Sequence record: LC739539.1
Source: Escherichia phage phiWec190
DNA length: 64,000 nucleotides
Strand: one strand, 5' to 3'
Below are positions 32,292 to 45,199 of the stretch, piece by piece. A program made the position numbers and the translations under genes. The notes under the pieces are model-generated. The model did no database searches. It saw only the letters and a program-made list of their open reading frames with translations, and was not told the origin of the DNA. Numbering within the stretch: position 1 is the stretch's first letter; the number at the start of each line of letters is the position of its first letter.

Positions 32292-33431
32292 ATGAAATAC
32301 ACAGTGTACGGGGATGTTGCTATTGTTAATAAAGACTTCGGTGTAGAGGTTGATAAACTCCCCGCTGGCGTTTGGACTGTCAATTGTGATCCACATGGTA
32401 ACTACTCTCTTAGTCGTGCTGATAAGTTCACGATTCCTGATCGCCTGTACGGGGAAACCAAAGAACGTGCAGCCCACGTTATCCGTACCTTCGCTCGTCG
32501 TAGTAAAGAAGGTAAGAACACAGGTGTCCTGTTGTCGGGTACAAAAGGCAGTGGCAAGACAATGCTGGCAAAACTGATCAGTAACACTCTGTTGGAAGCG
32601 GAAGACCTGGGAATCCCAACTATTCTGGTAACGCAGCCATATTCTGATGCCAACTTCCTGGAGTTCATGAGTAAGATCTCTGAACGCGCAGTAGTACTGT
32701 TCGATGAGTTCGACAAAGTGTATTCCAAGAAGGAAGATCAGGAAGCACTGCTGACTCTGCTGGATGGCACAGGTAGCGGTAACAAACTGTTCATGCTGAC
32801 AAAGAACAGTGGATACATCTCGGAATACTTCGTCAACCGTCCGAGCCGTATCTTCTATAGCTTCAACTACGACAAGCTGTCTATTGAAACTATGCTGGAC
32901 TACTTGGACAAGAATCTGAAGAATCGCAAACATGTTGAAAGCTTCCAACGTTTGTGGGATGTTAGCACTGAACTGTCTTTCGATGTTATTCAAGGGATCG
33001 TAGAAGAGTTAAACTTCTATCCGAAAATGACGTTCAAGACCTGTCTGGAGATGATGGGTATCTCTCTGGGTAACGATGCACGCTGGACGATTAGCTCTAT
33101 TGTTGTCAACGGTAAAGCTATCAAGCCTAACTGGGTCAACAACTGGCATGAGTTCACTCCTACCAAGTTCTTGTCTGGTGCATGTGAACTGAACATCTAC
33201 CTGGAAGCAGTGAAGGACGAAGAACTGGAGCCTCTCGAAGATAGCAGCTACGTCATCCTGGATGATGATGGTGATCCACGCATCGACCTGAAAGCTACCG
33301 CCGAAGGTTTGAAGTGTGACCTGATTGAAGGTGGTAAGATTGTAGTAGTGAGCGATAAACCTGGAGATACGTTCCGCGTGGTTCTGGAACCAACCACTAC
33401 ACGATCTGCAACACTGAGCAGTGTGTTCTGA
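32292..33431 (+). CDS. AAA-type ATPase
   Basis: 379 aa; Walker A LLSGTKGSGKTMLAK, Walker B AVVLFDEFDKV. Confidence 0.6.
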   Translation: MKYTVYGDVAIVNKDFGVEVDKLPAGVWTVNCDPHGNYSLSRADKFTIPDRLYGETKERAAHVIRTFARRSKEGKNTGVLLSGTKGSGKTMLAKLISNTLLEAEDLGIPTILVTQPYSDANFLEFMSKISERAVVLFDEFDKVYSKKEDQEALLTLLDGTGSGNKLFMLTKNSGYISEYFVNRPSRIFYSFNYDKLSIETMLDYLDKNLKNRKHVESFQRLWDVSTELSFDVIQGIVEELNFYPKMTFKTCLEMMGISLGNDARWTISSIVVNGKAIKPNWVNNWHEFTPTKFLSGACELNIYLEAVKDEELEPLEDSSYVILDDDGDPRIDLKATAEGLKCDLIEGGKIVVVSDKPGDTFRVVLEPTTTRSATLSSVF

Positions 33432-33855: not shown

Positions 33856-34044
33856 ATGGCACGTTTAGCAGATCATGAAATCTTTAAACCTATTCTGAAC
33901 CACTATAATGAACTTAAGGCAGTGTTGGATTGTTATAAAGAGGATGAAGAACGCTTGGAAGTCAATCTTAAGATAGTTCTGATGAAAGCTTTTCAAGACG
34001 GGCAAGCTGAAGTCTTAAGAGGTATGAAAAATGCGAATAACTGA
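33856..34044 (+). CDS. hypothetical protein (62 aa)
   Basis: Track ORF trimmed to MARLADHEIF... with AAGGAG RBS. Confidence 0.4.
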   Translation: MARLADHEIFKPILNHYNELKAVLDCYKEDEERLEVNLKIVLMKAFQDGQAEVLRGMKNANN

Positions 34045-34558
34045 TGAATATGTATTCTTCTTTTCACATAAAGATGTGTTTAGCAATTGGTACATTGCGC
34101 CATTTACAGAGACGGAACCAGGGTACAGTGACACTTTCTGTTGTGTAGAGCAATACATGATGTGGCGTAAGGCTTTGCTGTTCAAGGATCAGGTAATCGC
34201 AGCAGCTATCCTTTATCACTCAATGAAGCGTGACGACGAGAAGGGACAGGCGTACTACAAACGTATGGGTCGAGCGGTGTCTGGTTTTAATAATGACGTG
34301 TGGGAAGAGCACCGAGAGCGTATCGTAATGCGAGGCTTATGCTTGAAGTATACACAGAACCCTGATCTTTACTCTGACTTGCGCCTGTATCAATTCAAAA
34401 CATTCGTTGAGGCCAGCCCTTACGATAAGGTTTACGGAATTGGAATGGGTATGTATGAACCAGGGGTGCTTAATCCTGCCAACTGGAAAGGGCAGAATCT
34501 TTTAGGACAATACCACAACAATCTGATTAAAATCCTGTTCCCAGCCAAAATACCATAA
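34031..34558 (+). CDS. NADAR-like (DUF1768/YbiA-type) protein
   Basis: 175 aa; FFFSHKDVFSNWYIAPFTETEPGYSDTFCCVEQYMMWRKALLFKD fits the NADAR N-terminal signature. Confidence 0.55.
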   Translation: MRITDEYVFFFSHKDVFSNWYIAPFTETEPGYSDTFCCVEQYMMWRKALLFKDQVIAAAILYHSMKRDDEKGQAYYKRMGRAVSGFNNDVWEEHRERIVMRGLCLKYTQNPDLYSDLRLYQFKTFVEASPYDKVYGIGMGMYEPGVLNPANWKGQNLLGQYHNNLIKILFPAKIP

Positions 34559-34627
34559 AGGCGATATTCGTGATATTTTGAAAAAATTCGTTTTTAAAAA
34601 GAATACGTCAACTTTGTGCCACAGAAA

Positions 34628-34665
34628 AAGGCTCCTACAACCTCCGTAGAGAGCCTTTTTCTCTT
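34628..34665 (+). terminator. rho-independent terminator
   Basis: AGGCTCCTAC-AACCTCC-GTAGAGAGCCT followed by TTTTTCTCTTT. Confidence 0.65.
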
Positions 34666-35010
34666 TAGCTACACCAACACTCATCTTTTAGAGTTAACCT
34701 CGTTAGACGAGCATTCAGGTAGGTTGTAGGCTGCGTAGCATCTTCAGGAAAGATTATCTCAAATCTTACAAGCAAACTATCTCAAAAATCCCTACAATTA
34801 TTTAAACTTTTTATGAGTTTACAAAAACGAGAATCCAAAACCAAATTCTAAAGTTTACACACATTATCTCAAATGGGTGGACCAGATTGCAAAACAAAAA
34901 ACCGAGAAAAATTTTTAAAAAAGTCGCGCGCACCAGGTATTTAAAGTTTTTTTGCTTTTACAAAAGTGAAAGTTGAAAAGCAAATTCTAAAGTTTGCGTG
35001 AAAATTACCG

Positions 35011-35210
35011 AAATGAGAATTATTCTCACTTAAAATCGAAATACGAATGAGAATGATAATGATTCTCATTTAACATGGTAAATACGAATGATTCGCATTC
35101 AATAGCGTAAATGAGATTTATTCTCACCTTGCGAATGAGATTGATTCTCATTCAACTATCCAAATAAGATTGATTTTTATTCAATAAGGTAAATGATAAT
35201 CATTCTCATT
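35011..35210. repeat. array of about 7 imperfect palindromes resembling Fur-box hexamer repeats
   Basis: AATGAGAAT-n-ATTCTCATT type units about every 30 bp, e.g. GAATGAGAATGATAATGATTCTCATT and AATGATAATCATTCTCATT. Confidence 0.55.
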
Positions 35211-35471
35211 TAGAGAATGACGGGCAGGTCCGGTGATTATCTCGCGCTCCCGTGTCCCCTCGCCATGTAATAAGAATAACAGATCCAGCCAGGAAAGCAA
35301 GCGATTATTTTATCTTTACATTTCTTTACAAATATATAGCGCCCAGCCTCCCGGCGATCGACCTTCCAACCGGTGCCCCTGGTATGTTAGCCCCGCCTTT
35401 ACGCCGTGGGGGGTGGCGCTTCCTCTTCTGTATGTAAAACAGTATAAGCCCGATCCCTGGGCTTGTCAAGA

Positions 35472-35738
35472 CTATTTTTTGTCTTCTTGCCAGGCAAGAA
35501 CGCCTAACCAAAAATACATATCACCCCGCGCCCCTGGCGGTATCTTGTTTTCACCGCCGCCACTGCAAGCCCATAAATAACCATCAGCGAACGGATCAAA
35601 ATGGTCTATATCTTCCACTTTATGATCGCCCAAGGTGAGAACGGTTTCAACCTTTAAGCCCGTTGCGCTTGCTACCTGGTGGACCGTGCCGCCTTGCCAG
35701 CCTAAAGAGTGCATAAGGTGTAATGTAGTAGTTGTCAT
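35472..35738 (-). CDS. hypothetical protein in GC-rich island (uncertain)
   Basis: 88 aa track ORF, opposite orientation to neighbours, in a locally GC-rich 0.5 kb segment. Confidence 0.3.
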   Translation of the reverse strand: MTTTTLHLMHSLGWQGGTVHQVASATGLKVETVLTLGDHKVEDIDHFDPFADGYLWACSGGGENKIPPGARGDMYFWLGVLAWQEDKK

Positions 35739-35847: not shown

Positions 35848-35904
35848 TTGACGTTCGCCAGGTGGCGGCGTACTATTCATCACGTAGGGCGGCAATGGTG
35901 CTGC
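35848..35904 (+). promoter_or_regulatory. cassette promoter plus leader stem-loop (copy 1)
   Basis: TTGACG 35848-53, 17 nt, TACTAT 35871-76, leader CACGTAGGGCGGCAATGGTGCTGC (stem 35889-35904). Confidence 0.6.
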
Positions 35905-35925
35905 TCACTATCTGGAGTTAAGATC

Positions 35926-36123
35926 ATGGCAACATTGCACATAGTAGCGAAAGCAGGACAAATCAACGTAGTGGTAAACGGCTTTACTGAATTTAGTCAT
36001 CCTCAAGATGATCATGAAACGGTGCTATCTTTCATTGATTCCCTGTTAGAAATGGGAGTCATTACAGAAGACCAACACGCTACTAAATCCGAACGTGTCC
36101 GCCGTATCGCGGGTGAAGAATAA
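35926..36123 (+). CDS. small hypothetical protein (65 aa)
   Basis: Track ORF trimmed to first Met after leader; RBS GGAG. Confidence 0.5.
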   Translation: MATLHIVAKAGQINVVVNGFTEFSHPQDDHETVLSFIDSLLEMGVITEDQHATKSERVRRIAGEE

Positions 36124-36129
36124 AAAGTA

Positions 36130-36190
36130 TTGACAATACGCAACAACCTGATAAGATGTATCACGTAGAGCGGCGGAATGGTCCACCGCT
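36130..36190 (+). promoter_or_regulatory. cassette promoter plus leader stem-loop (copy 2)
   Basis: TTGACA 36130-35, 16 nt, TAAGAT, leader GTAGAGCGGCGGAATGGTCCACCGCTC. Confidence 0.6.
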
Positions 36191-36213
36191 CACAACTAAG
36201 AGAGATTATCATC

Positions 36214-36486
36214 ATGGCATCATATAGCGCAACAATGATCGTAACTGGCACCACTGGCAAACCTATGAGCGGTGGCGGATCTTTCGCTAACATCAATATT
36301 GACGGGCGCTTATCCCTGGACGCAGCGATCGCCGTAGCGCGGGAAACATTTAAGAAAGAATGTAATTTCAACAAGCAAGATTATTTAGGTTTCGCTATTG
36401 AAAAAACCGCGCGCTTTGTGGATTATAAAAGCCCGAAAATGGTTGATACTACATTAACAGCAAGACAAGTAAACTTTTTGCTGTAA
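36214..36486 (+). CDS. small hypothetical protein (90 aa)
   Basis: Track ORF trimmed to MASYSATM... after RBS AAGAGAGA. Confidence 0.5.
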   Translation: MASYSATMIVTGTTGKPMSGGGSFANINIDGRLSLDAAIAVARETFKKECNFNKQDYLGFAIEKTARFVDYKSPKMVDTTLTARQVNFLL

Positions 36487-36496
36487 GGGGGCTAAC

Positions 36497-36757
36497 GTGC
36501 ACTTTCTTAAGGTATGCGGGAAGATCATAGCCTTTCGTAATGAGGAATTTTATAACCTTGCTCGTTATGTTATGATCTACCCTGGCAAGGTATATAAAAA
36601 CAGTCCGACAAGTTACACTATTTACAATGTGCTATCAGGTAAAACCACGGAGATCATAAAAGGAGGGGTGAGAGATTATCGTACATCTTTCTATCCTTGC
36701 CGTGATTCCGCCAGCTTATTTTTTGTGTGTGAAATGATTGTTAAAAGGGGTGTATAA
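36497..36757 (+). CDS. hypothetical protein (86 aa, GTG start)
   Basis: ORF track; RBS AAGGGGG. Confidence 0.45.
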   Translation: MHFLKVCGKIIAFRNEEFYNLARYVMIYPGKVYKNSPTSYTIYNVLSGKTTEIIKGGVRDYRTSFYPCRDSASLFFVCEMIVKRGV

Positions 36758-37314
36758 TGGGGCGCGAATATGTGATCCAGTCCTGGGTAAAACATGACGT
36801 TAATGATCCGCGCATTATACCGGACGACATGATCGATCATGCTCCTGGCTATAGTGGCGAGCAAGTAGGCAACAGATCGGCGCGTAGTCATGGGAATACC
36901 AAAACACGCAGCGATCGCCCTGGTTGGCTGGCAAATGGTAACGCTGACATTGCAAGCGCCGCAGATGATAGCGACGGCGCGAAAGATAATCCGCTGTACA
37001 AGGTAGATCCGGCTTTTCGTGTCCTGGATGAATACCCCAGCAAGATAGCGGCGCTTGATGCCGCGCTCGAAAGTAAGCGCATCACCTGGACGGCGTACAG
37101 TACTGCAAAAAGCGTATTAGATGGTAAGCTGATCCAAGCTGAAAGGAAATTGGCCAAAATTGCAGCCATAGCCCAGGAGGAAGACCAGGAAGAGGAAGAC
37201 GATCACGCGGTTGAGTGCATCACCTTTGATCACTTCCTTCCAGTCTTTGAGGCATCACAAGAAGAGAAGAAAGAAGCCGAAAAAAATTATCTTTATTTTG
37301 ATGATTTAGGTTGA
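36757..37314 (+). CDS. hypothetical protein (185 aa) with acidic C-terminus
   Basis: ORF track; stop/start overlap with upstream gene. Confidence 0.5.
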   Translation: MGREYVIQSWVKHDVNDPRIIPDDMIDHAPGYSGEQVGNRSARSHGNTKTRSDRPGWLANGNADIASAADDSDGAKDNPLYKVDPAFRVLDEYPSKIAALDAALESKRITWTAYSTAKSVLDGKLIQAERKLAKIAAIAQEEDQEEEDDHAVECITFDHFLPVFEASQEEKKEAEKNYLYFDDLG

Positions 37315-37368
37315 CAGGTAAAACGTGATCACTTATAGTTAACTCATAGGGCGGCAACGGTGCCGCTC
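37311..37368 (+). promoter_or_regulatory. cassette promoter plus leader stem-loop (copy 3)
   Basis: TTGACA 37311-16, 17 nt, TATAGT 37334-39, leader CATAGGGCGGCAACGGTGCCGCTCACAAC. Confidence 0.6.
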
Positions 37369-37388
37369 ACAACCGAAAGGATAGAAAA

Positions 37389-37472
37389 ATGTTTACTACT
37401 TCCCTGTTTTTTGCAATCAATTTTATTCCTGGTTTCCGTGCTGCACTTGAAATCATTCTTTGGACACTGTAA
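37389..37472 (+). CDS. micro-ORF hydrophobic peptide (27 aa)
   Basis: Hand-read MFTTSLFFAINFIPGFRAALEIILWTL right after leader and RBS AAAGGA; not in track. Confidence 0.4.
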   Translation: MFTTSLFFAINFIPGFRAALEIILWTL

Positions 37473-37479
37473 GGAAAAC

Positions 37480-37590
37480 ATGATGATCAAGAAAGAAAAC
37501 AGTTTGACAGTTGGAACGATTAACGCTATTATCTTGGTTGTTCCATTTTGGATCACCGTAGCAGTTATCACAACAATCATTTTCAAGTAA
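37480..37590 (+). CDS. micro-ORF membrane peptide (36 aa)
   Basis: MMIKKENSLTVGTINAIILVVPFWITVAVITTIIFK; in-frame tail of track ORF 37360..37590, whose annotated start lies inside the stem-loop. Confidence 0.4.
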   Translation: MMIKKENSLTVGTINAIILVVPFWITVAVITTIIFK

Positions 37591-37600
37591 GGGGCACACC

Positions 37601-37792
37601 ATGTTTAAAAATATCACTGGCAACGTAGCAACATTGAAAGCAGGTGACAAGGTAGAATTGCACCGGATCACAATGACAGTAGCGCACATTGAAAAAGTGC
37701 CACCGCATCACCGCAAGATCTCGCTAACTTGCAACAAGGGGCGTAACATTACCGCCACATTGCACGAAAAAGATAACGTAGTCATTCTATAA
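37601..37792 (+). CDS. small hypothetical protein (63 aa)
   Basis: ORF track; RBS AAGGGG. Confidence 0.45.
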   Translation: MFKNITGNVATLKAGDKVELHRITMTVAHIEKVPPHHRKISLTCNKGRNITATLHEKDNVVIL

Positions 37793-37802
37793 GGCGGACA
37801 CT

Positions 37803-38084
37803 ATGAGCAAGGTAATTAGTCACGAAAAACTAAGCCCTACCCTATCGATCAGTGAATGCAACGATGGTTATTGGCTATACGATGAAACGCGCGGCATGAA
37901 TTTATCGATGCAAGCGAAAACCGAACAAGCGGCATATGTGCAAGCCCTGGAATATTACCAGCGACGACTACAGGAAGTTGAGAACAATTATAAAAGCCTG
38001 AAATCAAAGGTTGATCACTTTATCAGCCAGGCGGCAGATGACGACGATGATCACTATTGCGAGCGGTGCGGATCATACAGTTAA
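37803..38084 (+). CDS. small hypothetical protein (93 aa)
   Basis: ORF track; C-terminal CERCGS. Confidence 0.45.
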   Translation: MSKVISHEKLSPTLSISECNDGYWLYDETRGMNLSMQAKTEQAAYVQALEYYQRRLQEVENNYKSLKSKVDHFISQAADDDDDHYCERCGSYS

Positions 38085-38092
38085 AAATATCC

Positions 38093-38154
38093 TTGACAAC
38101 GTTTCAAAAAGTAGTAAGCTGTATCACATAGGGCGGCGGAATGGTCCACCGCTC
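38093..38154 (+). promoter_or_regulatory. cassette promoter plus leader stem-loop (copy 4)
   Basis: TTGACA 38093-98, TAAGCT, leader CACATAGGGCGGCGGAATGGTCCACCGCTC. Confidence 0.55.
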
Positions 38155-38174
38155 AAAACAGAAGAGAGAATATC

Positions 38175-38420
38175 ATGAAACACTTATCATCTATCACCAA
38201 TCACAATGAAATCTTTGTTAATGAAAAAGGTTACGCCTGGATTCAGTTAAAAGAGATGAAAAATAACCGTCGTGTAACGGTTGTTCGTAAAATTAAAAGC
38301 AAGCCTTTTAGTAACTTCTCGATTGATACCGTGCGGATCAAGAATGAAGAATACTTGATCGATAGCCAAATCACTTGGAGCTTAACGGCATCAGCCGCCG
38401 CACCATATTTCGCAAACTAA
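38175..38420 (+). CDS. small hypothetical protein (81 aa)
   Basis: ORF track. Confidence 0.5.
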   Translation: MKHLSSITNHNEIFVNEKGYAWIQLKEMKNNRRVTVVRKIKSKPFSNFSIDTVRIKNEEYLIDSQITWSLTASAAAPYFAN

Positions 38421-38431
38421 GAAAAAAACGT

Positions 38432-38488
38432 TTGACACTGTTTAAAATTCTGTTATAGTTTATCACGTAGGGCGGCAATGGTGCCGCC
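38432..38488 (+). promoter_or_regulatory. cassette promoter plus leader stem-loop (copy 5)
   Basis: TTGACA 38432-37, 16 nt, TATAGT, leader CACGTAGGGCGGCAATGGTGCCGCC. Confidence 0.6.
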
Positions 38489-38509
38489 AACAATAAAAAG
38501 GTTATCATC

Positions 38510-38689
38510 ATGGCTATCATTGCAAAAACTGAAATCGTGGGCTTAGATTCCATTCTTCTGACATATAAGGAAACGTTAGGAATGTATGTAGTAACCTATG
38601 GGGATTATGTGCATGAATACGAATATATTGATCTTGCTTTCGAATGTTACATTCGTCAGGTCAATCAAGCCTATAATGATTATCGTTAA
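38510..38689 (+). CDS. small hypothetical protein (59 aa, not in track)
   Basis: Hand-read MAIIAKTEIVGLDSILLTYKETLGMYVV... Confidence 0.4.
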   Translation: MAIIAKTEIVGLDSILLTYKETLGMYVVTYGDYVHEYEYIDLAFECYIRQVNQAYNDYR

Positions 38690-38708
38690 AAGTTTTAGTC
38701 TTGTGCTA

Positions 38709-38761
38709 TTGACAATAGGCGATAGTACAAGCATAATAACTTTTATCGGGAATACTTCCCA
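38709..38761 (+). promoter_or_regulatory. cassette promoter with variant leader hairpin (copy 6)
   Basis: TTGACA 38709-14, 17 nt, CATAAT 38732-37, hairpin GGGAA-TAC-TTCCC. Confidence 0.5.
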
Positions 38762-38786
38762 CTAACCAAAAAGAGAGAGTAAGAAC

Positions 38787-39152
38787 ATGGCTAAAAATAT
38801 CAATGTGTCCGCTTATGCTACCCTGGCTAACACTGCTAAAATCGAACTATCCAGCATTGAAGCAGTGCACATTAGCGCCCGTCGCTGGTTTCAACAGTCC
38901 TACGGTAATACATATTTTTCTTTAAGTGTGGACGTCGAGATCTGCGGTAAATTGATTGAAGTGGTTAACGTTCCGTTTCAATATGGCTATGGTGATCATT
39001 TTGATACCGTCGCCCTGGAAGAATTTAGCAAGGTTATCAACCTTGAAGGCAAAGAATTTTCACGCGGCAGCTATCTTTCCCGTTTTTGCCGTGACAATGG
39101 GATCGCTGTATACAGTCATGCAAGCGATGTTAAGCGTAAAAAAGATTTATAA
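38787..39152 (+). CDS. hypothetical protein (121 aa)
   Basis: ORF track. Confidence 0.5.
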   Translation: MAKNINVSAYATLANTAKIELSSIEAVHISARRWFQQSYGNTYFSLSVDVEICGKLIEVVNVPFQYGYGDHFDTVALEEFSKVINLEGKEFSRGSYLSRFCRDNGIAVYSHASDVKRKKDL

Positions 39153-39158
39153 AAGACG

Positions 39159-39220
39159 TTGACAGCACGAATAAAAAGAGTAAACTGTATTACATAGGGC
39201 GCGGGAATAGTTCCCGCCCC
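39159..39220 (+). promoter_or_regulatory. cassette promoter plus leader stem-loop (copy 7)
   Basis: TTGACA 39159-64, 16 nt, TAAACT, leader ACATAGGGCGCGGGAATAGTTCCCGCCCC. Confidence 0.6.
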
Positions 39221-39241
39221 ACTCAAAGAGAGATTAACATC

Positions 39242-39481
39242 ATGGCTAAATCAAAAATGTTCTTAGGTCACAAAAATAAAAATCATTGGAATGTAAGCCT
39301 TTGGATTAACAACGATGAATCATTGTATCGGTTGGCCCTGGACTTTATTAACGATAGCACTAATCGCAATGATGCGGCCCGTCATATGATGCTATTTTTA
39401 CAAGAGACTGGACAAGATAAGACTCCAGACGGTTTCAAATATAGCACTACTGCGATCCGCGCCGCGATGGTCGGAATGTAA
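39242..39481 (+). CDS. small hypothetical protein (79 aa)
   Basis: ORF track. Confidence 0.5.
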   Translation: MAKSKMFLGHKNKNHWNVSLWINNDESLYRLALDFINDSTNRNDAARHMMLFLQETGQDKTPDGFKYSTTAIRAAMVGM

Positions 39482-39490
39482 TAAAAACAG

Positions 39491-39548
39491 TTGACAACGT
39501 TTTAAATTAGTGTAAGATGTATCACATAGGGGCGACAAGCGCCCCGCC
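39491..39548 (+). promoter_or_regulatory. cassette promoter plus leader stem-loop (copy 8)
   Basis: TTGACA 39491-96, 16 nt, TAAGAT, leader CACATAGGGGCGACAAGCGCCCCGCC. Confidence 0.6.
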
Positions 39549-39568
39549 TAACAGAAGAGAGAAAAATC

Positions 39569-39796
39569 ATGGCTATCAATATTGTTCGCGTATCCGGCAC
39601 CGTTGGCACTTCCCAGGTTATAGCCGTTGTAACAAATAAAAAGATTAATGATGTATGTGAGATCTTGAATAAGTGGGCTATTGCTAATTTTGGGGAATAT
39701 GCGAGCGTTGAGTACATCGAATCTTATCAGGTGCCAACCATCAGCCTGACCGATCTCAACGTTGATCGCCTGTTATGCCTGGACGAATTAATCTGA
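39569..39796 (+). CDS. small hypothetical protein (75 aa)
   Basis: ORF track. Confidence 0.5.
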   Translation: MAINIVRVSGTVGTSQVIAVVTNKKINDVCEILNKWAIANFGEYASVEYIESYQVPTISLTDLNVDRLLCLDELI

Positions 39797-39805
39797 AAAA
39801 GATTG

Positions 39806-39862
39806 TTGACACGGGAAAGAAAAAGAGTAAACTGTATTACGTAGGGCGGCAATGGTGCCGCC
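39806..39862 (+). promoter_or_regulatory. cassette promoter plus leader stem-loop (copy 9)
   Basis: TTGACA 39806-11, 16 nt, TAAACT, leader ACGTAGGGCGGCAATGGTGCCGCC. Confidence 0.6.
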
Positions 39863-39881
39863 AGCAAGAAGAGAGATTATC

Positions 39882-40097
39882 ATGATGGCTAATATCCGCA
39901 CACTGTTAAAAAATGCAAGTCGAGTTTTATTTTCCGATCACGATTATTTCAATAAAGACATTACAGGCGTTAAGAACATCAAAGATGTAAAAAGTGTTAT
40001 GGGTATATATTGCAATGTGAAACGTGTTGGAACTTTTAGCAACAAGGTAGTATATCAGGCAGGGGATTACAATTTTACACTAACAATCTTAAATTAA
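39882..40097 (+). CDS. small hypothetical protein (71 aa)
   Basis: Track ORF trimmed to MMANIRT... after leader. Confidence 0.45.
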   Translation: MMANIRTLLKNASRVLFSDHDYFNKDITGVKNIKDVKSVMGIYCNVKRVGTFSNKVVYQAGDYNFTLTILN

Positions 40098-40100
40098 AGC

Positions 40101-40162
40101 TTGCAATCCCCATAAAATAAAGTAAACTGTATTACATCAAGGCGGCGGAATGGTCCACCGCC
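40101..40162 (+). promoter_or_regulatory. cassette promoter plus leader stem-loop (copy 10)
   Basis: TTGCAA 40101-06, 16 nt, TAAACT, leader ACATCAAGGCGGCGGAATGGTCCACCGCC. Confidence 0.55.
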
Positions 40163-40186
40163 TAACAAAGAGAAGAGGAAAACATC

Positions 40187-40354
40187 ATGATTACTTTTAC
40201 TACCCGTGAAGCCGCTCGCAACGTTGCACGTAAAGTTAACGCCGCCAACCTGGGCGCTACGCTTAAAGCCCCTGTAAAAGATACATCAGGCGCGTGGATC
40301 TTCCCTGGTCTGCGTCATGCTGATAACTTGGGCACGTTAAGCCGTAACAAATAA
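40187..40354 (+). CDS. small basic protein (55 aa, not in track)
   Basis: Hand-read MITFTTREAARNVARKVNAANLGATLKAPVKDTSGAWIFPGLRHADNLGTLSRNK. Confidence 0.4.
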   Translation: MITFTTREAARNVARKVNAANLGATLKAPVKDTSGAWIFPGLRHADNLGTLSRNK

Positions 40355-40368
40355 GGTTAGCCCTTCGT

Positions 40369-40396
40369 AATAGCGCCCCGCTCAATAGGCGCTATT
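40369..40396 (+). other. intercistronic 9-bp-stem hairpin
   Basis: AATAGCGCC-CCGCTCAATA-GGCGCTATT, immediately upstream of RBS for 40435. Confidence 0.45.
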
Positions 40397-40434
40397 GAGA
40401 AGAGAAACCACTTATCACAAAGAGAGAAAACATC

Positions 40435-40656
40435 ATGATCACTTTCGCTATTGTCGCCGTTGTCGCTGGTCAAGTTTACGTGAACGATACATTCACCACC
40501 GAAGACAAAGCAGCAGGAGATATCACCGCCGCTTATAACGAGTGCAAGGAAGTAGGAAGGATGTTAGCGCCTTGCTTCCTTATGAGTGAACGCCAGGACG
40601 GGATCACGGTGTTTACTAACATTGAAACAGGATATCAAATGATAGTAGAAAAATGA
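40435..40656 (+). CDS. small hypothetical protein (73 aa)
   Basis: ORF track. Confidence 0.45.
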   Translation: MITFAIVAVVAGQVYVNDTFTTEDKAAGDITAAYNECKEVGRMLAPCFLMSERQDGITVFTNIETGYQMIVEK

Positions 40657-40718
40657 TTGACAAGTTTTAAAAATCCGGTAAGATGTAACACGTAGGGCGG
40701 CAATGGTGCCGCTCACAA
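40656..40718 (+). promoter_or_regulatory. cassette promoter plus leader stem-loop (copy 11)
   Basis: TTGACA 40656-61, 16 nt, TAAGAT, leader ACACGTAGGGCGGCAATGGTGCCGCTCACAAC. Confidence 0.6.
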
Positions 40719-40733
40719 CAGAAGAGAGACACC

Positions 40734-41087
40734 ATGAAAGCACAAAATGCAATTAAACTTTATATTCTGGCCTCAATTGATTATAGCGAGTATAGCATCA
40801 CAGAAGAGAAAGAGAAGATCGCGGAATTGATGCGACGTTTTAAGAATGAGTACTGGTATCCCTATAACCAAGAATACTACAATCATAACGTTATCAGAGC
40901 AATAGCCTCATGGTTACAAGGTTTACCGTCAGATATCAATATCGCTTTCGAATATTGGGAAGTAGATCGGTTGTTAACATCCTGGGGATACATTAGCGAG
41001 CGTAGCAGCGAAAGCAAGATCCAGAAAGAAAGGGAAAACTATTGGCTATACCTTGCAGGAGTGATCCTTGCACTTTCCCACGAATAA
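40734..41087 (+). CDS. hypothetical protein (117 aa)
   Basis: ORF track. Confidence 0.5.
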   Translation: MKAQNAIKLYILASIDYSEYSITEEKEKIAELMRRFKNEYWYPYNQEYYNHNVIRAIASWLQGLPSDINIAFEYWEVDRLLTSWGYISERSSESKIQKERENYWLYLAGVILALSHE

Positions 41088-41103
41088 AAAGTTTTAAAAG
41101 TAG

Positions 41104-41165
41104 TTGACAGGCATCAAACAATAAAGTAAATTTAAACACGTAGGGCGGCAATGGTGCCGCTCACA
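41104..41165 (+). promoter_or_regulatory. cassette promoter plus leader stem-loop (copy 12)
   Basis: TTGACA 41104-09, TAAATT, leader ACACGTAGGGCGGCAATGGTGCCGCTCACAAC. Confidence 0.55.
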
Positions 41166-41183
41166 ACAAAAAGAGGAAACATC

Positions 41184-41330
41184 ATGAATACATCTAATCG
41201 CGCCGAAAAAATCCAATCTTCCAAAACTCGCGCAGCGTGGAATGAAGAAGTGGTCCGCAAGGGCGACAAGCGCAACAAGACTAAGCGCGACCGCACCGAT
41301 AAACGTGCATGGCTGGACCTGGAAGACTAA
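41184..41330 (+). CDS. small highly basic protein (48 aa, not in track)
   Basis: Hand-read MNTSNRAEKIQSSKTRAAWNEEVVRKGDKRNKTKRDRTDKRAWLDLED. Confidence 0.4.
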   Translation: MNTSNRAEKIQSSKTRAAWNEEVVRKGDKRNKTKRDRTDKRAWLDLED

Positions 41331-41338
41331 CAAAACAA

Positions 41339-41361
41339 GGGCGCAAATAGCGCCCTTTCTT
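41339..41361 (+). terminator. rho-independent terminator
   Basis: GGGCGC-AAATA-GCGCCC then TTTCTT. Confidence 0.6.
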
Positions 41362-41386
41362 ATATCTAACGAGAGGATAACAGCAC

Positions 41387-41572
41387 ATGACCTTAAACGA
41401 GATTAAAACCGCCTACAACGCAACGAACAAAGTAGCAGCCCGTTACCGCGACGAATACGGATTTATTGCGCAAGGCGTGATCCTGGGCTTATCTAATGAT
41501 GGTTTGATTTACATTGATGCTTATCATAACCAGGTTAAACCTGAAAATGTTATCAGTATAAAATATCTTTAA
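41387..41572 (+). CDS. small hypothetical protein (61 aa)
   Basis: ORF track; RBS GAGAGGA. Confidence 0.45.
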   Translation: MTLNEIKTAYNATNKVAARYRDEYGFIAQGVILGLSNDGLIYIDAYHNQVKPENVISIKYL

Positions 41573-41578
41573 AAGTGG

Positions 41579-41638
41579 TTGACACCATAATCAGACCTGA
41601 TAAGATGTATCACGTAGGGCGGCAATGGTACCGCGCTC
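41579..41638 (+). promoter_or_regulatory. cassette promoter plus leader stem-loop (copy 13)
   Basis: TTGACA 41579-84, 16 nt, TAAGAT, leader CACGTAGGGCGGCAATGGTACCGCGCTC. Confidence 0.55.
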
Positions 41639-41654
41639 GTTTGAGGATCAAACT

Positions 41655-41939
41655 ATGGTTAAAGCTAACACGGTGCTACTGTTTTCCCTGGTTAATGATG
41701 CCGCTTACTTGTCCAACATGACGCAAGATGATAGCACATTAACGGCAACGTTTACCGATGGACTTAACCGAGTGATCATCGTTTCACTGAAAACAGGGAG
41801 TAAAGGCTTTTACTCGTTGGCTTATCATTGGGTAACAGACAGCGACGAGACAAGCCAGGACTATAGCGCCCCGTTCCCTGAATCAATGGCACGGGAGATC
41901 ATCGCCGCCGTTGTAAACGATGGTTTATTTACTGCATAA
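41655..41939 (+). CDS. hypothetical protein (94 aa)
   Basis: Track ORF trimmed to MVKANTV... Confidence 0.45.
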   Translation: MVKANTVLLFSLVNDAAYLSNMTQDDSTLTATFTDGLNRVIIVSLKTGSKGFYSLAYHWVTDSDETSQDYSAPFPESMAREIIAAVVNDGLFTA

Positions 41940-41958
41940 AAATAATTTAGAAAAAGGT

Positions 41959-42020
41959 TTGCAATCATTTTGAGATAGTGTATATTTAATTCATAGGGCG
42001 GCGGGAATAGTTCCCAAAGC
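41959..42020 (+). promoter_or_regulatory. cassette promoter plus leader stem-loop (copy 14)
   Basis: TTGCAA 41959-64, 16 nt, TATATT, leader CATAGGGCGGCGGGAATAGTTCCC. Confidence 0.5.
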
Positions 42021-42038
42021 AAGCGAGAGGATAACACA

Positions 42039-42158
42039 ATGAACAAATACACAGTAGAATACACGGTAGAGAATCCGGCAGTATCCGAAGGGCGTAAGAC
42101 TACGATCGCCGTTGGTGTTATCGCTTTCGTTATCACTATCTTATCAATCATCTTATAA
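42039..42158 (+). CDS. micro-ORF membrane peptide (39 aa)
   Basis: Hand-read MNKYTVEYTVENPAVSEGRKTTIAVGVIAFVITILSIIL; C-terminal TM helix. Confidence 0.4.
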   Translation: MNKYTVEYTVENPAVSEGRKTTIAVGVIAFVITILSIIL

Positions 42159-42168
42159 GGTGCACACC

Positions 42169-42348
42169 ATGAAAACAGTAAACGTTATCAGATCATCAAA
42201 CATCATTAAAGAGATCGCCCTTGCCACTGGTATTGAGATCGAGGAAGTGATCGCGCTCAATCTTACAGAAAACGATCTGCGCAACTATGAAGCGGAAAGC
42301 GTGAAAGCAAGTGGCGCGGTCCTGGCATATAATCCGGCTAACAAATAG
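42169..42348 (+). CDS. small hypothetical protein (59 aa)
   Basis: In-frame tail of track ORF 42112..42348 from MKTVNV... Confidence 0.4.
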   Translation: MKTVNVIRSSNIIKEIALATGIEIEEVIALNLTENDLRNYEAESVKASGAVLAYNPANK

Positions 42349-42408
42349 TTTGACAAGCTGAATCAACCTGATAAGATGTATCACATAGGGGCGACAAGCG
42401 CCCCGCCT
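42349..42408 (+). promoter_or_regulatory. cassette promoter plus leader stem-loop (copy 15)
   Basis: TTGACA 42349-54, 17 nt, TAAGAT, leader CACATAGGGGCGACAAGCGCCCCGCC. Confidence 0.6.
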
Positions 42409-42428
42409 AACAGAAGAGAGAAAAAATC

Positions 42429-42707
42429 ATGACCATCGTTAAATTAACAACCGAAGAAATGAAAACAATGTTAACCACTAATTTACAAAATTGGAAAATT
42501 GGTGTTGACGTTGAAACAGTGTGCAAGTTGAACGACAAACTAACACCGGACGACATTGAAACGATCATCCGTGCAGATTTCTATGATGCTTTATACGATG
42601 ATTCCACAGTCCTTGAAACGATGTTGGATAACGCTTGGATCAATCCCGATTTGGCGGCTTATGGTCATCTTGCCTTTGAAGCCATCCATAATGTTTATAA
42701 TCGTTAA
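42429..42707 (+). CDS. hypothetical protein (92 aa)
   Basis: ORF track. Confidence 0.5.
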   Translation: MTIVKLTTEEMKTMLTTNLQNWKIGVDVETVCKLNDKLTPDDIETIIRADFYDALYDDSTVLETMLDNAWINPDLAAYGHLAFEAIHNVYNR

Positions 42708-42717
42708 GGGGGATAAC

Positions 42718-42849
42718 ATGAATCCGAAAGATATGCAAGCATGGAAAGGGTACGACGATCTAAGCGCCTTGCGCAATAAGTCAAGCCGTAACCTTAGACG
42801 GTTGGAAGCAAAGAAAAAGAAAAATATTAAGGGGGTGCACCATGTATAA
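42718..42849 (+). CDS. small basic protein (43 aa)
   Basis: In-frame tail of track ORF 42556..42849 from MNPKDMQAWKGY..., RBS AAGGGGG. Confidence 0.35.
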   Translation: MNPKDMQAWKGYDDLSALRNKSSRNLRRLEAKKKKNIKGVHHV

Positions 42850-43069
42850 CAATATCATTGCAGATCGTGCCGCTACTATTCGCCCAGGAGATCGGGCGCG
42901 TTTACAGGTTGGCGTTTATCCGTTCCCGTCTTATGACTTCTGCAAGGTAACGGCTATCGAAAACAATCCGTTTGATCCTGACACCGTGATCATCTGGTAC
43001 GAAGGAAGGGGAAACAGATATGAAGATATCTTGGGGCGTGATGAATCCGTAAACATTTTACGCTATTAA
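42842..43069 (+). CDS. small hypothetical protein (75 aa)
   Basis: ORF track. Confidence 0.45.
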   Translation: MYNNIIADRAATIRPGDRARLQVGVYPFPSYDFCKVTAIENNPFDPDTVIIWYEGRGNRYEDILGRDESVNILRY

Positions 43070-43202
43070 CAGCCTGTAAGCTGTACGGCTGTATTACAGC
43101 CTAAAAGGTGTAAGGCAATGCAATCCCCTACCTGATTTAATTAGTGCGCCCTGGCTTATACTGGGGCGTTATACATTGTAGAAAATAATTTTAAAAATAT
43201 GC

Positions 43203-43263
43203 TTGACGCCTGGAACGTTGGCGCGTATAGTTTATCACATAGGGCGGCGGAATGGTCCACCGC
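43203..43263 (+). promoter_or_regulatory. cassette promoter plus leader stem-loop (copy 16)
   Basis: TTGACG 43203-08, 17 nt, TATAGT, leader CACATAGGGCGGCGGAATGGTCCACCGC. Confidence 0.6.
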
Positions 43264-43283
43264 AAAACAGAAGAGAAAACATC

Positions 43284-43469
43284 ATGACTACTTACAAGAA
43301 AACGAAAGAATTGGTAAAAGGCGATCTGGTTAGAAATATCCTGAATGGTAAGTTTTATGCAATGGTATCTATTGAACGTTATCAAACTGGTTACATTGTT
43401 AAACTTGATAGTCGTGACGATGGTTGCGAGTTTTACACTGAATATAATGATCGTCACATAGTCAAATAA
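43284..43469 (+). CDS. small hypothetical protein (61 aa)
   Basis: Track ORF trimmed to MTTYKKT... Confidence 0.45.
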   Translation: MTTYKKTKELVKGDLVRNILNGKFYAMVSIERYQTGYIVKLDSRDDGCEFYTEYNDRHIVK

Positions 43470-43480
43470 ACCATAAACCA

Positions 43481-43497
43481 GGGGCGACAAGCGCCCC
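43481..43497 (+). other. intercistronic hairpin GGGGCG-ACAAG-CGCCCC
   Basis: Same hairpin as in leaders of copies 8 and 15, here without a promoter. Confidence 0.45.
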
Positions 43498-43517
43498 ATA
43501 ACAAGAAAGGTAACAAG

Positions 43518-43700
43518 ATGAAAAAGATTGATTCTTCCCGTGTATTGTGTGAAATTGATGTTATCATCGGCAACGGCACCGGACACCATAAACTGATTAA
43601 GGGTAAGGCTTATCGCCTGGCAACGCTCAAAGCAGATATGCGCCTAACAGCAAGCCAGATCAAAAAGTTTTTTCGCCCCTTGTTGACAACAGCAAAGTAA
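43518..43700 (+). CDS. small basic protein (60 aa)
   Basis: ORF track. Confidence 0.45.
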   Translation: MKKIDSSRVLCEIDVIIGNGTGHHKLIKGKAYRLATLKADMRLTASQIKKFFRPLLTTAK

Positions 43701-43740
43701 GCGCGTAGTATTCATCTTGTAGGGCGGCAATGGTGCCGCC
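43683..43740 (+). promoter_or_regulatory. cassette promoter plus leader stem-loop (copy 17)
   Basis: TTGACA 43683-88 (inside 3' end of previous gene), 17 nt, TAGTAT, leader TTGTAGGGCGGCAATGGTGCCGCC. Confidence 0.55.
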
Positions 43741-43758
43741 GATGGTGAGGGTAATATA

Positions 43759-43896
43759 ATGAAAACTTTCAATGCAACAGCCTCGACAATTGGTTATATT
43801 ATTACAGTGCAAGCCGTGGACCTGGTAGCAGCAGCAAACAAGATTAAAAGAATGATCCCGCCAGGTAGTGAATTTTCCGTTTGGGAAGTAAAATAA
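43759..43896 (+). CDS. small hypothetical protein (45 aa, not in track)
   Basis: Hand-read MKTFNATASTIGYIITVQAVDLVAAANKIKRMIPPGSEFSVWEVK. Confidence 0.4.
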   Translation: MKTFNATASTIGYIITVQAVDLVAAANKIKRMIPPGSEFSVWEVK

Positions 43897-43898
43897 AT

Positions 43899-43961
43899 CT
43901 TGACAGTATTTTGTTTTCTGGTAAAGTGTATCACGTAGGGCGGGGCAATAAGGCAACGCCC
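43899..43961 (+). promoter_or_regulatory. cassette promoter plus leader stem-loop (copy 18)
   Basis: TTGACA 43899-904, 16 nt, TAAAGT, leader CACGTAGGGCGGGGCAATAAGGCAACGCCC. Confidence 0.55.
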
Positions 43962-43979
43962 ATTAAAGAGGGTAGCATC

Positions 43980-44084
43980 ATGTTAGAGAAAATTTTCACG
44001 GTTGCAATAGTTGGCCTGGCGTTATCGGTTGGAGTGGTTGCAACTATGGCTAATATGATCCTATCTTCTCACGGTATCGGTTAA
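43980..44084 (+). CDS. micro-ORF membrane peptide (34 aa)
   Basis: In-frame tail of track ORF 43881..44084: MLEKIFTVAIVGLALSVGVVATMANMILSSHGIG. Confidence 0.4.
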   Translation: MLEKIFTVAIVGLALSVGVVATMANMILSSHGIG

Positions 44085-44094
44085 GGTGAAACAA

Positions 44095-44310
44095 ATGTTC
44101 ACGAACAAAGCAGGCAAAACGGAATTTTTACGCGGCTTACAAGTTGGTAAGCCTGAGATCTGGCATTGCAGCAAGTCCGCACATAACGAAATGAAAGACT
44201 TTACCGCATCGTTGCAACGTGTTAAAATAACTATCACGCAGAAAAAAGCCCTGATAGTGGCAGAAAACGAGATCCCACAGACCATTATCATAATTGAGCG
44301 CACATCATAA
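44095..44310 (+). CDS. small hypothetical protein (71 aa)
   Basis: Track ORF 44086..44310; ATG at 44095 has AAGGTG RBS. Confidence 0.45.
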   Translation: MFTNKAGKTEFLRGLQVGKPEIWHCSKSAHNEMKDFTASLQRVKITITQKKALIVAENEIPQTIIIIERTS

Positions 44311-44325
44311 TTTTATTTATATTGA

Positions 44326-44387
44326 ATAAATAGTATTGACACAGATCACCAGTGTGATAATATTTACCACGTAGGGCGGCAATGGTG
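44326..44387 (+). promoter_or_regulatory. cassette promoter plus leader stem-loop (copy 19)
   Basis: TTGACA 44326-31, 16 nt, TAATAT, leader ACCACGTAGGGCGGCAATGGTGCCGCTCACC. Confidence 0.6.
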
Positions 44388-44412
44388 CCGCTCACCATTT
44401 GGAGTTATAACC

Positions 44413-44814
44413 ATGAACATTACGATCCTTTCTTATACTGACGTTGTTAACATTGCTAAAACTTTCGGCGCTGAAGCCCTGAAATATGCGGTTTCCAATG
44501 GTAATCTGACAAAGGAACAATGCTACCTGATTGGAGGCTGTAAACGTTGGGCGGTGTCTCGCAACATTGAGATCGAAAACGTCAACGATGGCAACACTGA
44601 ATATAGTGTTGATGCCGTTTTCCAGTCGGTTGATTTAGGCGGGATCTATAACACTAATCTGAATGATGTGCGTATCGTTCGCACTGGTTTCGGTGCTTAT
44701 GATGTACCAGTCCGCGAAGCTATGGAGAAAGGTTATATTAATCCGACCATTTTAAATATGATCATGACTGAGACTAAACAGCGTAACGATGCACGGGCTA
44801 TCTTGGGCCTGTAA
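44413..44814 (+). CDS. hypothetical protein (133 aa)
   Basis: ORF track. Confidence 0.5.
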   Translation: MNITILSYTDVVNIAKTFGAEALKYAVSNGNLTKEQCYLIGGCKRWAVSRNIEIENVNDGNTEYSVDAVFQSVDLGGIYNTNLNDVRIVRTGFGAYDVPVREAMEKGYINPTILNMIMTETKQRNDARAILGL

Positions 44815-44834
44815 GTAAAAACTCCAAAAAACTA

Positions 44835-44896
44835 TTGACACGGATCGTCAATATGATAATATTTACCACGTAGGGCGGGAATAGTTCCCGCTTCCT
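44835..44896 (+). promoter_or_regulatory. cassette promoter plus leader stem-loop (copy 20; near-duplicate of copy 19)
   Basis: TTGACA 44835-40, 16 nt, TAATAT, leader ACCACGTAGGGCGGGAATAGTTCCCGC. Confidence 0.6.
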
Positions 44897-44914
44897 GGAA
44901 AAAGGTAAAACATC

Positions 44915-45160
44915 ATGTACCAGACAACTAAAATTGGCAATATCTACCACGACCCGAAAAATTCGCGCGGTATGGCTTGGATCAAAATGCCTAACAACAT
45001 TTGGTATTATGCGTTAAAAGGGAATACTTTGATGGGTAATCGTTGGACCTGGATCAAAGAGAATAACAACATTATCAACGATGAAAAAATCAGCGAAATG
45101 GTAGCAACAGGTAAGGTTGTAAAGGAAGAAAACACCGATCGCGTAACGCGTCAATTCTAA
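44915..45160 (+). CDS. small hypothetical protein (81 aa)
   Basis: ORF track. Confidence 0.5.
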   Translation: MYQTTKIGNIYHDPKNSRGMAWIKMPNNIWYYALKGNTLMGNRWTWIKENNNIINDEKISEMVATGKVVKEENTDRVTRQF

Positions 45161-45163
45161 AAA

Positions 45164-45178
45164 GGGCGGCAACGCCCC
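45164..45178 (+). other. intercistronic hairpin with GCAA tetraloop
   Basis: GGGCG-GCAA-CGCCC between stop of 44915..45160 and RBS of 45200. Confidence 0.45.
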
Positions 45179-45199
45179 ACTATCAGAAAGGAAAAGATT

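Follow-up and report, generated by a model that had tools for sequence, protein, structure and literature searches.

The 64,000-nucleotide stretch of DNA of Escherichia phage phiWec190 (LC739539.1) that was the subject of our analysis, called below the window and always meant at its full length, contains at 34750-35220 a repeat-dense non-coding region with an array of seven palindromic units of the type AATGAGAAT-N-ATTCTCATT. Two more units of this type, at 48913 (box A) and 49092-49116 (box B), lie on the far side of a block of small genes. The G+C content of the region is 29%, vs. 42% for the whole window, and the region is enclosed in a gap of about 900 bp without a credible gene. All coordinates are those of the window unless another genome is named. 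Results of our analysis indicate that the palindromes belong to the class of E. coli Fur boxes, that the region matches the injection-stop module of phage T5, and that the position of the array relative to the genome end recurs in other phage lineages.

The region is preceded by a hairpin that closes the upstream plus-strand operon (AAA ATPase to NADAR-domain gene; Pfam matches to AAA at 32292-33431 and to NADAR at 34031-34558). Behind the hairpin there are two exact copies of ATTATCTCAAAT, at 34753 and 34863, a third copy, CTATCTCAAAA, at 34776, and two 58-nt AT-rich repeats, the 3' end of each of which is an exact CAAATTCTAAAGTTT (at 34842 and 34981); phage BME3 has three units similar to these 58-nt repeats. 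The centres of the palindromic units that follow are spaced by 37, 32, 29, 24, 29, and 29 bp; the second unit is a 25-bp double one that starts at 35046/35052, and those at 35081 and 35163 are degenerate. A search of the window for AATGAGAATNATTCTCATT, with at most 3 mismatches allowed, gave 9 matches (vs. 0.10 expected; none of 100 shuffled sequences reached 9), all of them confined to the array, 48913, and 49098.

The first-pass annotation of this DNA, made from the sequence alone, had described a terminator at 34628, direct repeats, about seven palindromes roughly every 30 bp, and two more copies that bracket the small-gene array. The terminator proved to be a hairpin with 12-bp arms, the direct repeats are present with small corrections of their coordinates (34753/34863 and 34842/34981), and the seven palindromes are spaced by 24-37 bp. 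The far-side copies were found at 48913 and 49098, the position 49084 given for the latter being the start of an extended unit, GAATGCGAATGATAATGATAATTATTCTCATT. The bracketing of the small genes is real, and it is sharper than described: the far-side boxes lie in the equivalent of the terminal repeat of related phages, so that the array and the physical genome end are the two limits of the bracket.

Table 1. Features of the array region, of the adjacent small-gene block, and of the genome end in the window.
Feature	Coordinates	Strand	Remarks
Hairpin, 12-bp arms and 16-nt loop	34623-34662		Left boundary of the non-coding region; repeat search
TTATCTCAAA(T/A) direct repeats, three copies	34753-34764, 34776-34786, 34863-34874	+	Counterparts of T5 'direct repeat A'
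58-nt AT-rich direct repeats, two copies	34799-34856, 34938-34995		81% identical
Array of seven Fur-box-class palindromic units	35012-35210 (units: 35012-35030, 35046-35070 (double), 35081-35099, 35110-35128, 35134-35152, 35163-35181, 35192-35210)	not assigned	Pattern and matrix searches
G+C-rich non-coding conserved segment	35211-35440	-	Adjoins the array
Promoter-like site P2, TTGCTT-16-TATTCT	35273-35300	-	Reads toward the array; read by eye
Promoter-like site P1, TTGACA-17-TATACT	35441-35469	-	Reads toward the array; read by eye
Small ORF, 88 aa	35472-35738	-	Transcription directed to the array; also annotated in Mydo, GAP31, and BME3
Small-gene array, about 45 short genes	35848-47881	+	About 12 kb
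Terminator after the last small gene	47895-47917	+	Marks the beginning of a 1.45-kb non-coding gap with the terminus inside
Terminal-repeat equivalent (physical genome end)	48839-49170		Alignment to the 329-342-bp repeats of Schickermooser and BME3
Fur-box-class unit A	48913-48931		Within the terminal-repeat equivalent; 17.5 bits; kept in Schickermooser and BME3
Fur-box-class double unit B	49092-49116		Within the terminal-repeat equivalent; 22.1 and 17.8 bits; kept in Schickermooser and BME3

Palindromes of the Fur-box class

The search of the window with the 19-mer Fur consensus GATAATGATAATCATTATC, with at most 3 mismatches allowed, revealed matches at 35049, 35189, and 49095, vs. 0.04 expected. 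The first two are identical to the consensus in 16 of 19 positions and the third in 17 of 19, which makes box B a 17/19 match to the classical Fur box. The units also fit the 7-1-7 core TGATAATnATTATCA at 12-13 of 14 positions.

The resemblance of the units to Fur boxes, as well as the scoring of the units against a Fur matrix as a means to check it, had been suggested in the first-pass annotation, and reciprocal matrix tests against real E. coli Fur promoters uphold it. A matrix derived solely from the nine units of the window (matrix 1) was used to scan a 127-kb sample of the E. coli K-12 genome around the ent/fep, fhuA, and fec loci. Eight of its top nine matches are in known Fur-regulated intergenic regions, and all six such regions (fecA, fecI, fepB-entC, fhuA, fepD-entS, and fepA-fes) were recovered. 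Conversely, a palindromic motif obtained by expectation-maximisation on these six E. coli regions, with no phage input (matrix 2), has its top nine matches in the window exclusively at the array or close to the far-side copies, with scores of 12.6-22.1 bits, vs. 19-23.5 bits for the training sites. At a threshold of at least 17 bits it indicates five sites in the window, whereas all of its matches in the E. coli sample belong to the known Fur regions. The same matrix was applied to the whole, 149.8-kb genome of phage phiWec188 (LC739537.1), a member of Stephanstirmvirinae that is filed under Phapecoctavirus and assigned to the proposed genus 'Wecvirus'; its array region is 100% identical to that of the window, and the alignable 44 kb are 99.9% identical. 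The top seven matches of this genome are in the array and the terminal locus, and at a threshold of at least 13 bits there are 10 sites, vs. 1.9 expected.

Matches in pairs, 6 bp apart, were found at 35046/35052, 35186/35192, and 49092/49098, as well as at 9577/9583 in T5. Overlapping sites that are offset by 3 or 6 bp are a trait of Fur clusters (Chen et al. 2007, PMC2189734), and the full units of the array have the 6-bp offset, which is partly inherent to any motif made of hexamer repeats. The likeness to E. coli Fur operator clusters, such as those of fepA-fes, fepB-entC, fhuA, fecI, and fecA, comprises the 19-bp dyad of GATAAT-type hexamers, the overlap of sites at the 6-bp offset, and equal scores in both matrix directions. 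The differences concern the arrangement and the setting. While the E. coli clusters are contiguous, the phage array consists of seven units distributed over 200 bp and has no overlapping recognisable promoter, its half-sites are biased to GAGAAT, and the phage sites are on a virulent genome in positions tied to the genome end.

These results allow us to assign the palindromes to the E. coli Fur-box class with high confidence, and, judging from their sequence, the predicted boxes are probably bound by Fur. No gene of a DNA-binding or Fur-family protein was found in the neighbourhood, where Pfam searches of the genes next to the array indicated only the AAA ATPase and the NADAR domain. ArgR, KdgR, Zur, FNR, IHF, and DnaA were considered as other ligands and rejected on the basis of the geometry of their motifs.

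Further Fur-like sequences deserve a separate mention. Two weaker sites, AATGATAACCATTATCATC at 48130 and TGATAATAGTTCGCA at 48192, are present in the non-coding gap that precedes the terminal repeat and are both kept in Schickermooser (at 16187 and 16249); beside them, at 48189, there is a DnaA box with one mismatch on the minus strand. In the genome of E. coli K-12 (NC_000913.3), the sequence AATTGAGAATCATTCTGAATT at about 189,580, in the map-tff/rpsB intergenic region, has a matrix 1 score equal to that of known Fur operators. It is not among the Fur sites used by us, and may be an unrecognised site or a chance match.

Counterparts in T5 and position relative to the genome end

A sensitive blastn search with the sequence of 34740-35240 matched 667 phage records, which represent Stephanstirmvirinae, Vequintavirinae, and hundreds of T5-like Demerecviridae, although E-values are inflated in alignments between repeat arrays. 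In T5 the matches coincide with features of the left terminal repeat that are annotated as 'injection stop signal (iss)', 'direct repeat C copies 3 and 4', and 'palindromes G and H'. The array corresponds to T5 direct repeat C and palindromes E-I, and the upstream TTATCTCAAA repeats correspond to T5 direct repeat A, with order and orientation unchanged. The sequence of the T5 units is GAATGATAATGATTCTCATTT (in a longer reading, GAATGCGAATGATAATGAGAATCAATCTCATTT...AAATGATAATGATTCTCATTT...), and the copies of T5 direct repeat A (CTATCTCAAATCTTCCC and TTATCTCAACTCTTCCCC) are on the same side and strand as the TTATCTCAAATCTTACA repeats of the window, with orientation matched. The direct repeat A motif is found upstream of the palindromes, on the same strand and at a distance of 250-430 nt, in phages phiWec179, phAPEC8, nieznany, Schickermooser, Mydo, GAP31, and T5. 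Longer strings, e.g., AATACGAATGAT, are also common to the window and T5, which argues for common descent of the module rather than for independent convergence on a binding site. Conservation was the property with which the first-pass annotation had proposed to challenge its own reading of the palindromes, and they turned out to be kept in related as well as unrelated enterobacterial phages. A scan of IMG/VR for the palindrome gave many unrelated contigs with single sites, as would be expected of a host regulator motif, and was not informative.

Apart from being non-coding and repeat-dense, the two regions share near-identical palindromes (AATGATAATGATTCTCATT in T5 vs. AATGATAATCATTCTCATT in the window), TTATCTCAAA repeats on the same side and strand, convergent terminators around, a position at the inner border of a terminal, host-transcribed early block, and the presence of a further box near the terminus. 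The unit period is different (35 bp in T5 vs. 29 bp in the window), and the paired DnaA boxes, TGTCGGATTTGCACA repeats, and annotated nick of T5 have no equivalents in the window. We conclude with high confidence that the region matches the T5 injection-stop module. It is best explained as a conserved non-coding cis-acting module, being the myovirus counterpart of the T5 stop-signal repeat region. What is common to T5-like phages and these myoviruses are the Fur-type palindromes and the TTATCTCAAA repeats, and not the DnaA boxes of the current T5 model.

In the comparative study of Davison, the repeat region of T5 was called the likely stop signal, and the shear point of the DNA transferred in the first step was calculated to be at T5 position 9618. 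This point is inside the Fur-like palindromes at 9577-9636. The function of the T5 repeats was described there as 'impossible to guess', and Fur was not mentioned. According to papers from 2023 and 2026, no functional test of the T5 stop repeats exists, and our search of the literature revealed no published link of Fur to the T5 stop region or to the phages described here.

The position of the far-side boxes could be related to the genome end owing to relatives with determined termini. A terminal repeat of 328 bp was reported by Korf et al. for phapecoctavirus Schickermooser, the record of which starts and ends with identical 329 bp that align to 48839-49170 of the window. In the case of BME3, which belongs to Justusliebigvirus, a terminal repeat of 342 bp was determined with PhageTerm. 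The terminal repeats of Schickermooser, BME3, and phiWec188 all hold both far-side boxes at kept positions, with the surrounding DNA about 70% identical; in Schickermooser the boxes begin 75 and 254 bp from the end. The distance from the array to the end is 14.0-14.1 kb in Schickermooser (9.3% of the genome) and about 11.9 kb in BME3 (8%). With the terminus inferred by alignment to relatives, it is about 14 kb in phiWec188 (about 9.3%), and in the rV5-like phage RudolfGeigy, the distance to weaker paired units in a 2.5-kb non-coding gap is about 11.8 kb (8.6%). The published size of the first-step DNA of T5 corresponds to 7.9% of its genome.

T5-like phages have a box near the terminus as well. 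In T5 (233-247), Spc35 (233-247), and BF23 (232-246), a perfect 7-1-7 Fur box, TGATAATCATTATCA, is located about 232 bp from the left end, in the 3' part of the dmp gene, where it is invariant while the neighbouring codons vary. In the Vibrio T5-like phage VF16 (LC811684.1), the A1 protein of which is only about 31% identical to that of T5, the sequence AATGAGAACTAGTCTCATT (AATGAGA-N5-TCTCATT) occupies positions 18-36, 18 bp from the left end defined with PhageTerm. Another box of this phage, AATGATAATGAGTCTCATT at 6656-6674, is the best match in 16 kb and marks the inner end of the pre-early block; beside it there are TGTGGATAA DnaA boxes, as well as about ten GGTGCAAAT repeats similar to T5 direct repeat D. 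The layout in which an array at the inner end of a terminal block is accompanied by boxes near the terminus thus recurs in Phapecoctavirus, Justusliebigvirus, Vequintavirinae, and T5-like phages, in lineages that have no common flanking genes.

Boxes are present in the short terminal repeat, at 75 and 254 bp from its end as measured from their left edges, and this raises the question of whether the module serves packaging or the formation of termini (concatemer cutting or repeat generation), or is left over from an ancestral long terminal repeat that, as in T5, had its inner boundary here. In T5, 500-670 bp separate the repeats from the left repeat's inner boundary, and hence also from the right physical end, and the copies of T5 direct repeat A are 75-115 bp from that inner boundary, which would fit such a role. 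However, in Schickermooser and BME3 the cut site is separated from the seven-unit array by about 14 and about 12 kb, respectively, a motif of a host-regulator type is not expected to be recognised by a terminase, and a relic devoid of function would not have been retained across subfamilies. We therefore consider a packaging role or a relic very unlikely.

A replication origin, with direct repeats as iterons and dyads as initiator sites in AT-rich DNA, would resemble the origin of lambda and was one of the options listed in the first-pass annotation. The likeness to lambda-type iterons consists in several units of about 19 bp with internal dyad symmetry beside AT-rich DNA. In the window this is represented by seven regularly spaced 19-bp dyads and direct repeats in DNA of 29% G+C; an AAA+ ATPase gene is located 2 kb upstream, and the T5 and VF16 versions of the module adjoin DnaA boxes. 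In contrast to the lambda origin, the phage array neither lies within nor adjoins an initiator gene (the adjacent genes are those of the AAA ATPase and the NADAR-domain protein, and unassigned ones), its units match a host regulator motif, and copies of them are also present in the terminal repeat. No DnaA box with at most one mismatch was found in 34500-35600, and the turn of GC skew at about 30 kb, away from the array, reflects gene orientation. The origins of T5 itself were mapped close to the genome centre and not in the terminal repeat (Davison). With neither a DnaA box nor an adjacent initiator gene, the origin option finds no specific support, and in our opinion it is most improbable.

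An observation that concerns the terminus of BME3 itself (PP239276) is that its record contains three copies of the box-carrying terminal-repeat segment (18844-19069 and 19705-19930 in one extracted piece, and 47-272 in another). Two of them are in tandem, 342 bp apart, across the record ends, and the third is 861 bp upstream. Either an assembly artefact or a true duplication may account for this.

Possible roles of the array and the terminal boxes

The occurrence of a host-regulator motif at two loci defined by geometry, its conservation across lineages, and the location of the array in a transcriptionally quiet zone between convergent terminators are consistent with a cis-acting site that is read by a pre-existing host protein. 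Our preferred explanation, which we put forward tentatively, is that Fur-Fe2+ dimers on the array and the terminal boxes of the incoming DNA mark the boundary of the early block that enters the cell first. According to this proposal, the terminal block would enter the cell and its array and terminal boxes would be coated by host Fur-Fe2+ dimers that are already there. The coating would build a nucleoprotein boundary that delimits the first-entering segment and could pause or organise genome entry until early proteins are made, in a manner similar to the first-step transfer of T5. We infer that the end bearing the small genes is the one to enter first. That entry actually pauses at the array is possible but rather doubtful.

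The mechanism of the T5 transfer stop, which takes place after about 8% of the genome, has been open since the 1960s. This stop requires no phage protein synthesis and is absent in vitro with FhuA proteoliposomes, which points to the involvement of a host component. That no homologues of the T5 pre-early proteins were found in phiWec188 also agrees with a host factor. It is conceivable, although quite improbable at present, that host Fur is the pre-existing factor at the T5 stop and that a Fur-marked two-step or paused entry is common to the rV5-like, phAPEC8-like, and phi92-like myoviruses and the T5-like siphoviruses. In a screen of the BASEL collection with daunorubicin, a DNA intercalator (PMC13250531), Vequintavirinae and Demerecviridae were among the most sensitive phages, Drexlerviridae were sensitive too, and the infection by T5-like phage Bas33 was blocked after the first-step transfer. 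The sensitivity of Vequintavirinae and Demerecviridae is compatible with an early DNA-entry step common to both, but it is only a correlation.

Several points weigh against a Fur-marked entry boundary. Two-step DNA entry has been reported neither for Stephanstirmvirinae nor for Vequintavirinae, and the way in which a DNA-binding protein of the cytoplasm would physically stop DNA transfer is not obvious. Even in T5, it has not been demonstrated which of the repeats make up the stop signal. Moreover, the similarity to T5 is incomplete. Repeat searches of the window revealed no family similar to direct repeat D (TGTCGGATTTGCACA), and the paired DnaA boxes of T5 (IRD'-spacer-IRC') have no counterpart at the array, whereas both DnaA boxes and direct repeat D are present in T5 and VF16. 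The array is outside any long terminal repeat: in T5 the region is within a terminal repeat of about 10 kb, but in the relatives of the window phage the repeat has 329-342 bp, at a distance of about 14 kb from the array. Phage phiWec188 is a myovirus, and unlike T5 it lacks homologues of A1 and A2. A tblastn search with all 17 T5 pre-early proteins, including these two, gave no match at E<=0.05 in the whole phiWec188 genome, although remote homologues are possible, and no match in the window and two relatives. Homologues of A1 are common in other phages, but none was seen among the 40 listed of 1135 records. Finally, matrix 2 was derived from six promoter regions only, and the half-site of 74 phage units, AATGA(G 65% / T 31%)AAT, deviates from the E. 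coli one: about 65% of the phage half-sites are AATGAGAAT, while the E. coli motif prefers AATGATAAT, with T at that position. Given this bias, the true ligand could be a protein other than Fur.

Such a ligand might be phage-encoded or carried by the virion, the Fur resemblance being then coincidental or partial. The preference for G where E. coli Fur sites have T would be explained in this way, and so would the conservation of the arms AATGAGA/TCTCATT with a variable centre even in the Vibrio T5-like phage. T5 provides a precedent, as its pre-early DNA-binding protein A2 is needed for the second-step transfer. On the other hand, AATGAGAA half-sites occur naturally in the E. coli Fur sites of fecI, fhuA, and fepB-entC, the motif spans siphoviruses and myoviruses without common flanking genes, and A2 is among the T5 pre-early proteins that have no detectable homologue in phiWec188. 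In addition, the stop in T5 occurs without synthesis of any phage protein. We regard a phage-specific ligand as distinctly unlikely.

If Fur binds the palindromes, its role could still be regulatory or metabolic, with the array acting as a Fur sink or making local transcription iron-responsive. Derepression of the Fur regulon by Fur boxes in multiple copies underlies the Fur titration assay. As a sink, replicating phage genomes would titrate Fur, and the resulting derepression of host iron uptake and iron sparing would serve the iron-dependent ribonucleotide reductase of the phage. Phage phiWec188 encodes at 79731-83421 NrdA and NrdB of an iron-requiring ribonucleotide reductase of class Ia, and this is a possible reason for the phage to touch host iron regulation. 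Titration, however, needs no fixed position, yet the array is found at 8-9% of the genome from the terminus, together with extra terminal boxes, in three lineages. As to local transcription, the minus-strand transcripts of P1 and P2, which read into the array, could be made iron-responsive; the last palindrome can form a terminator-like stem, and in phiWec188 and BME3 box B is flanked by TTGAAT and TATTCT, which are separated by an 18-nt spacer. Nevertheless, the TTGAAT/TATTCT arrangement is lost in Schickermooser, there is no minus-strand gene downstream of the array before the hairpin that ends at 34662, and no convincing sigma-70 promoter overlaps the seven-unit array. Therefore, the options of a titration site and of an operator array, which had been considered in the first-pass annotation, are not specifically supported, the former in view of the position kept relative to the genome end across three lineages, and the latter in view of the lack of such a promoter and the location between convergent terminators. 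A solely regulatory or metabolic role of Fur at these sites appears unlikely to us.

New elements of the entry-boundary proposal are that the most widely conserved part of the T5 stop region consists of Fur-type boxes and not of DnaA boxes, that three other phage groups have the module at the same relative distance from the end of the genome, and that a specific protein is indicated as a candidate for acting at the T5 stop region. If true, a Fur-marked entry would link phage DNA entry to the iron status of the cell. Coliphages of the therapeutic type from the rV5, phAPEC8, and phi92 groups may deliver an immediate-early block first, and their infection could respond to iron.

Flanking segment and the small-gene block

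The array is adjoined by a conserved, G+C-rich segment. On the minus strand, the sequence of 35211-35469 is about 93% identical among phapecoctaviruses and can be aligned to that of Mydovirus and Seunavirus phages. Indels of one and two bases, which would shift the reading frame, occur between close relatives and indicate that 35211-35440 is not coding. Rfam searches with the region (in the E-value mode) and with the whole window (in the gathering mode) gave only chance microRNA-like matches on the palindromes. A consensus fold of 35211-35440 from seven homologues revealed no compensatory changes, the sequences being too conserved to show any. The positions of P1 and P2 are kept among relatives although their spacers diverge, and the last unit of the array together with the adjacent TAGAGAATGAC could fold into a terminator-like hairpin for the minus-strand transcripts that start there. 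Possibly, the 35211-35469 minus strand is a small RNA gene that ends at the last palindrome, and the conservation of this unit may partly reflect a terminator-like role. The 88-aa product predicted from the next minus-strand ORF had no match in Pfam.

The genes of the small-gene block are likely immediate-early ones, transcribed by host RNA polymerase. Promoters of the TTGACN-N16-18-TAnnnT type are present in 20 copies in this block, vs. 10 on the plus strand of the other 52 kb of the window. In 18 of the 20 (35848-47416; TTGACA-N17-TAAGAT type), a conserved hairpin of the 5' leader, CACGTAGGGCGGCAATGGTGCCGCTCAC and its variants (GGGCGG..CCGC), is found about 10 nt or less downstream of the promoter; it may be an RNA stability or regulatory element common to the early block. 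Identical copies of a 54-nt sequence are present at 39513 and 42372. The window is also about 800 bp longer than the phiWec188 record at 42433-43233, in a repeated promoter region of this block, and the difference is probably a repeat that was collapsed or expanded in one of the two assemblies.

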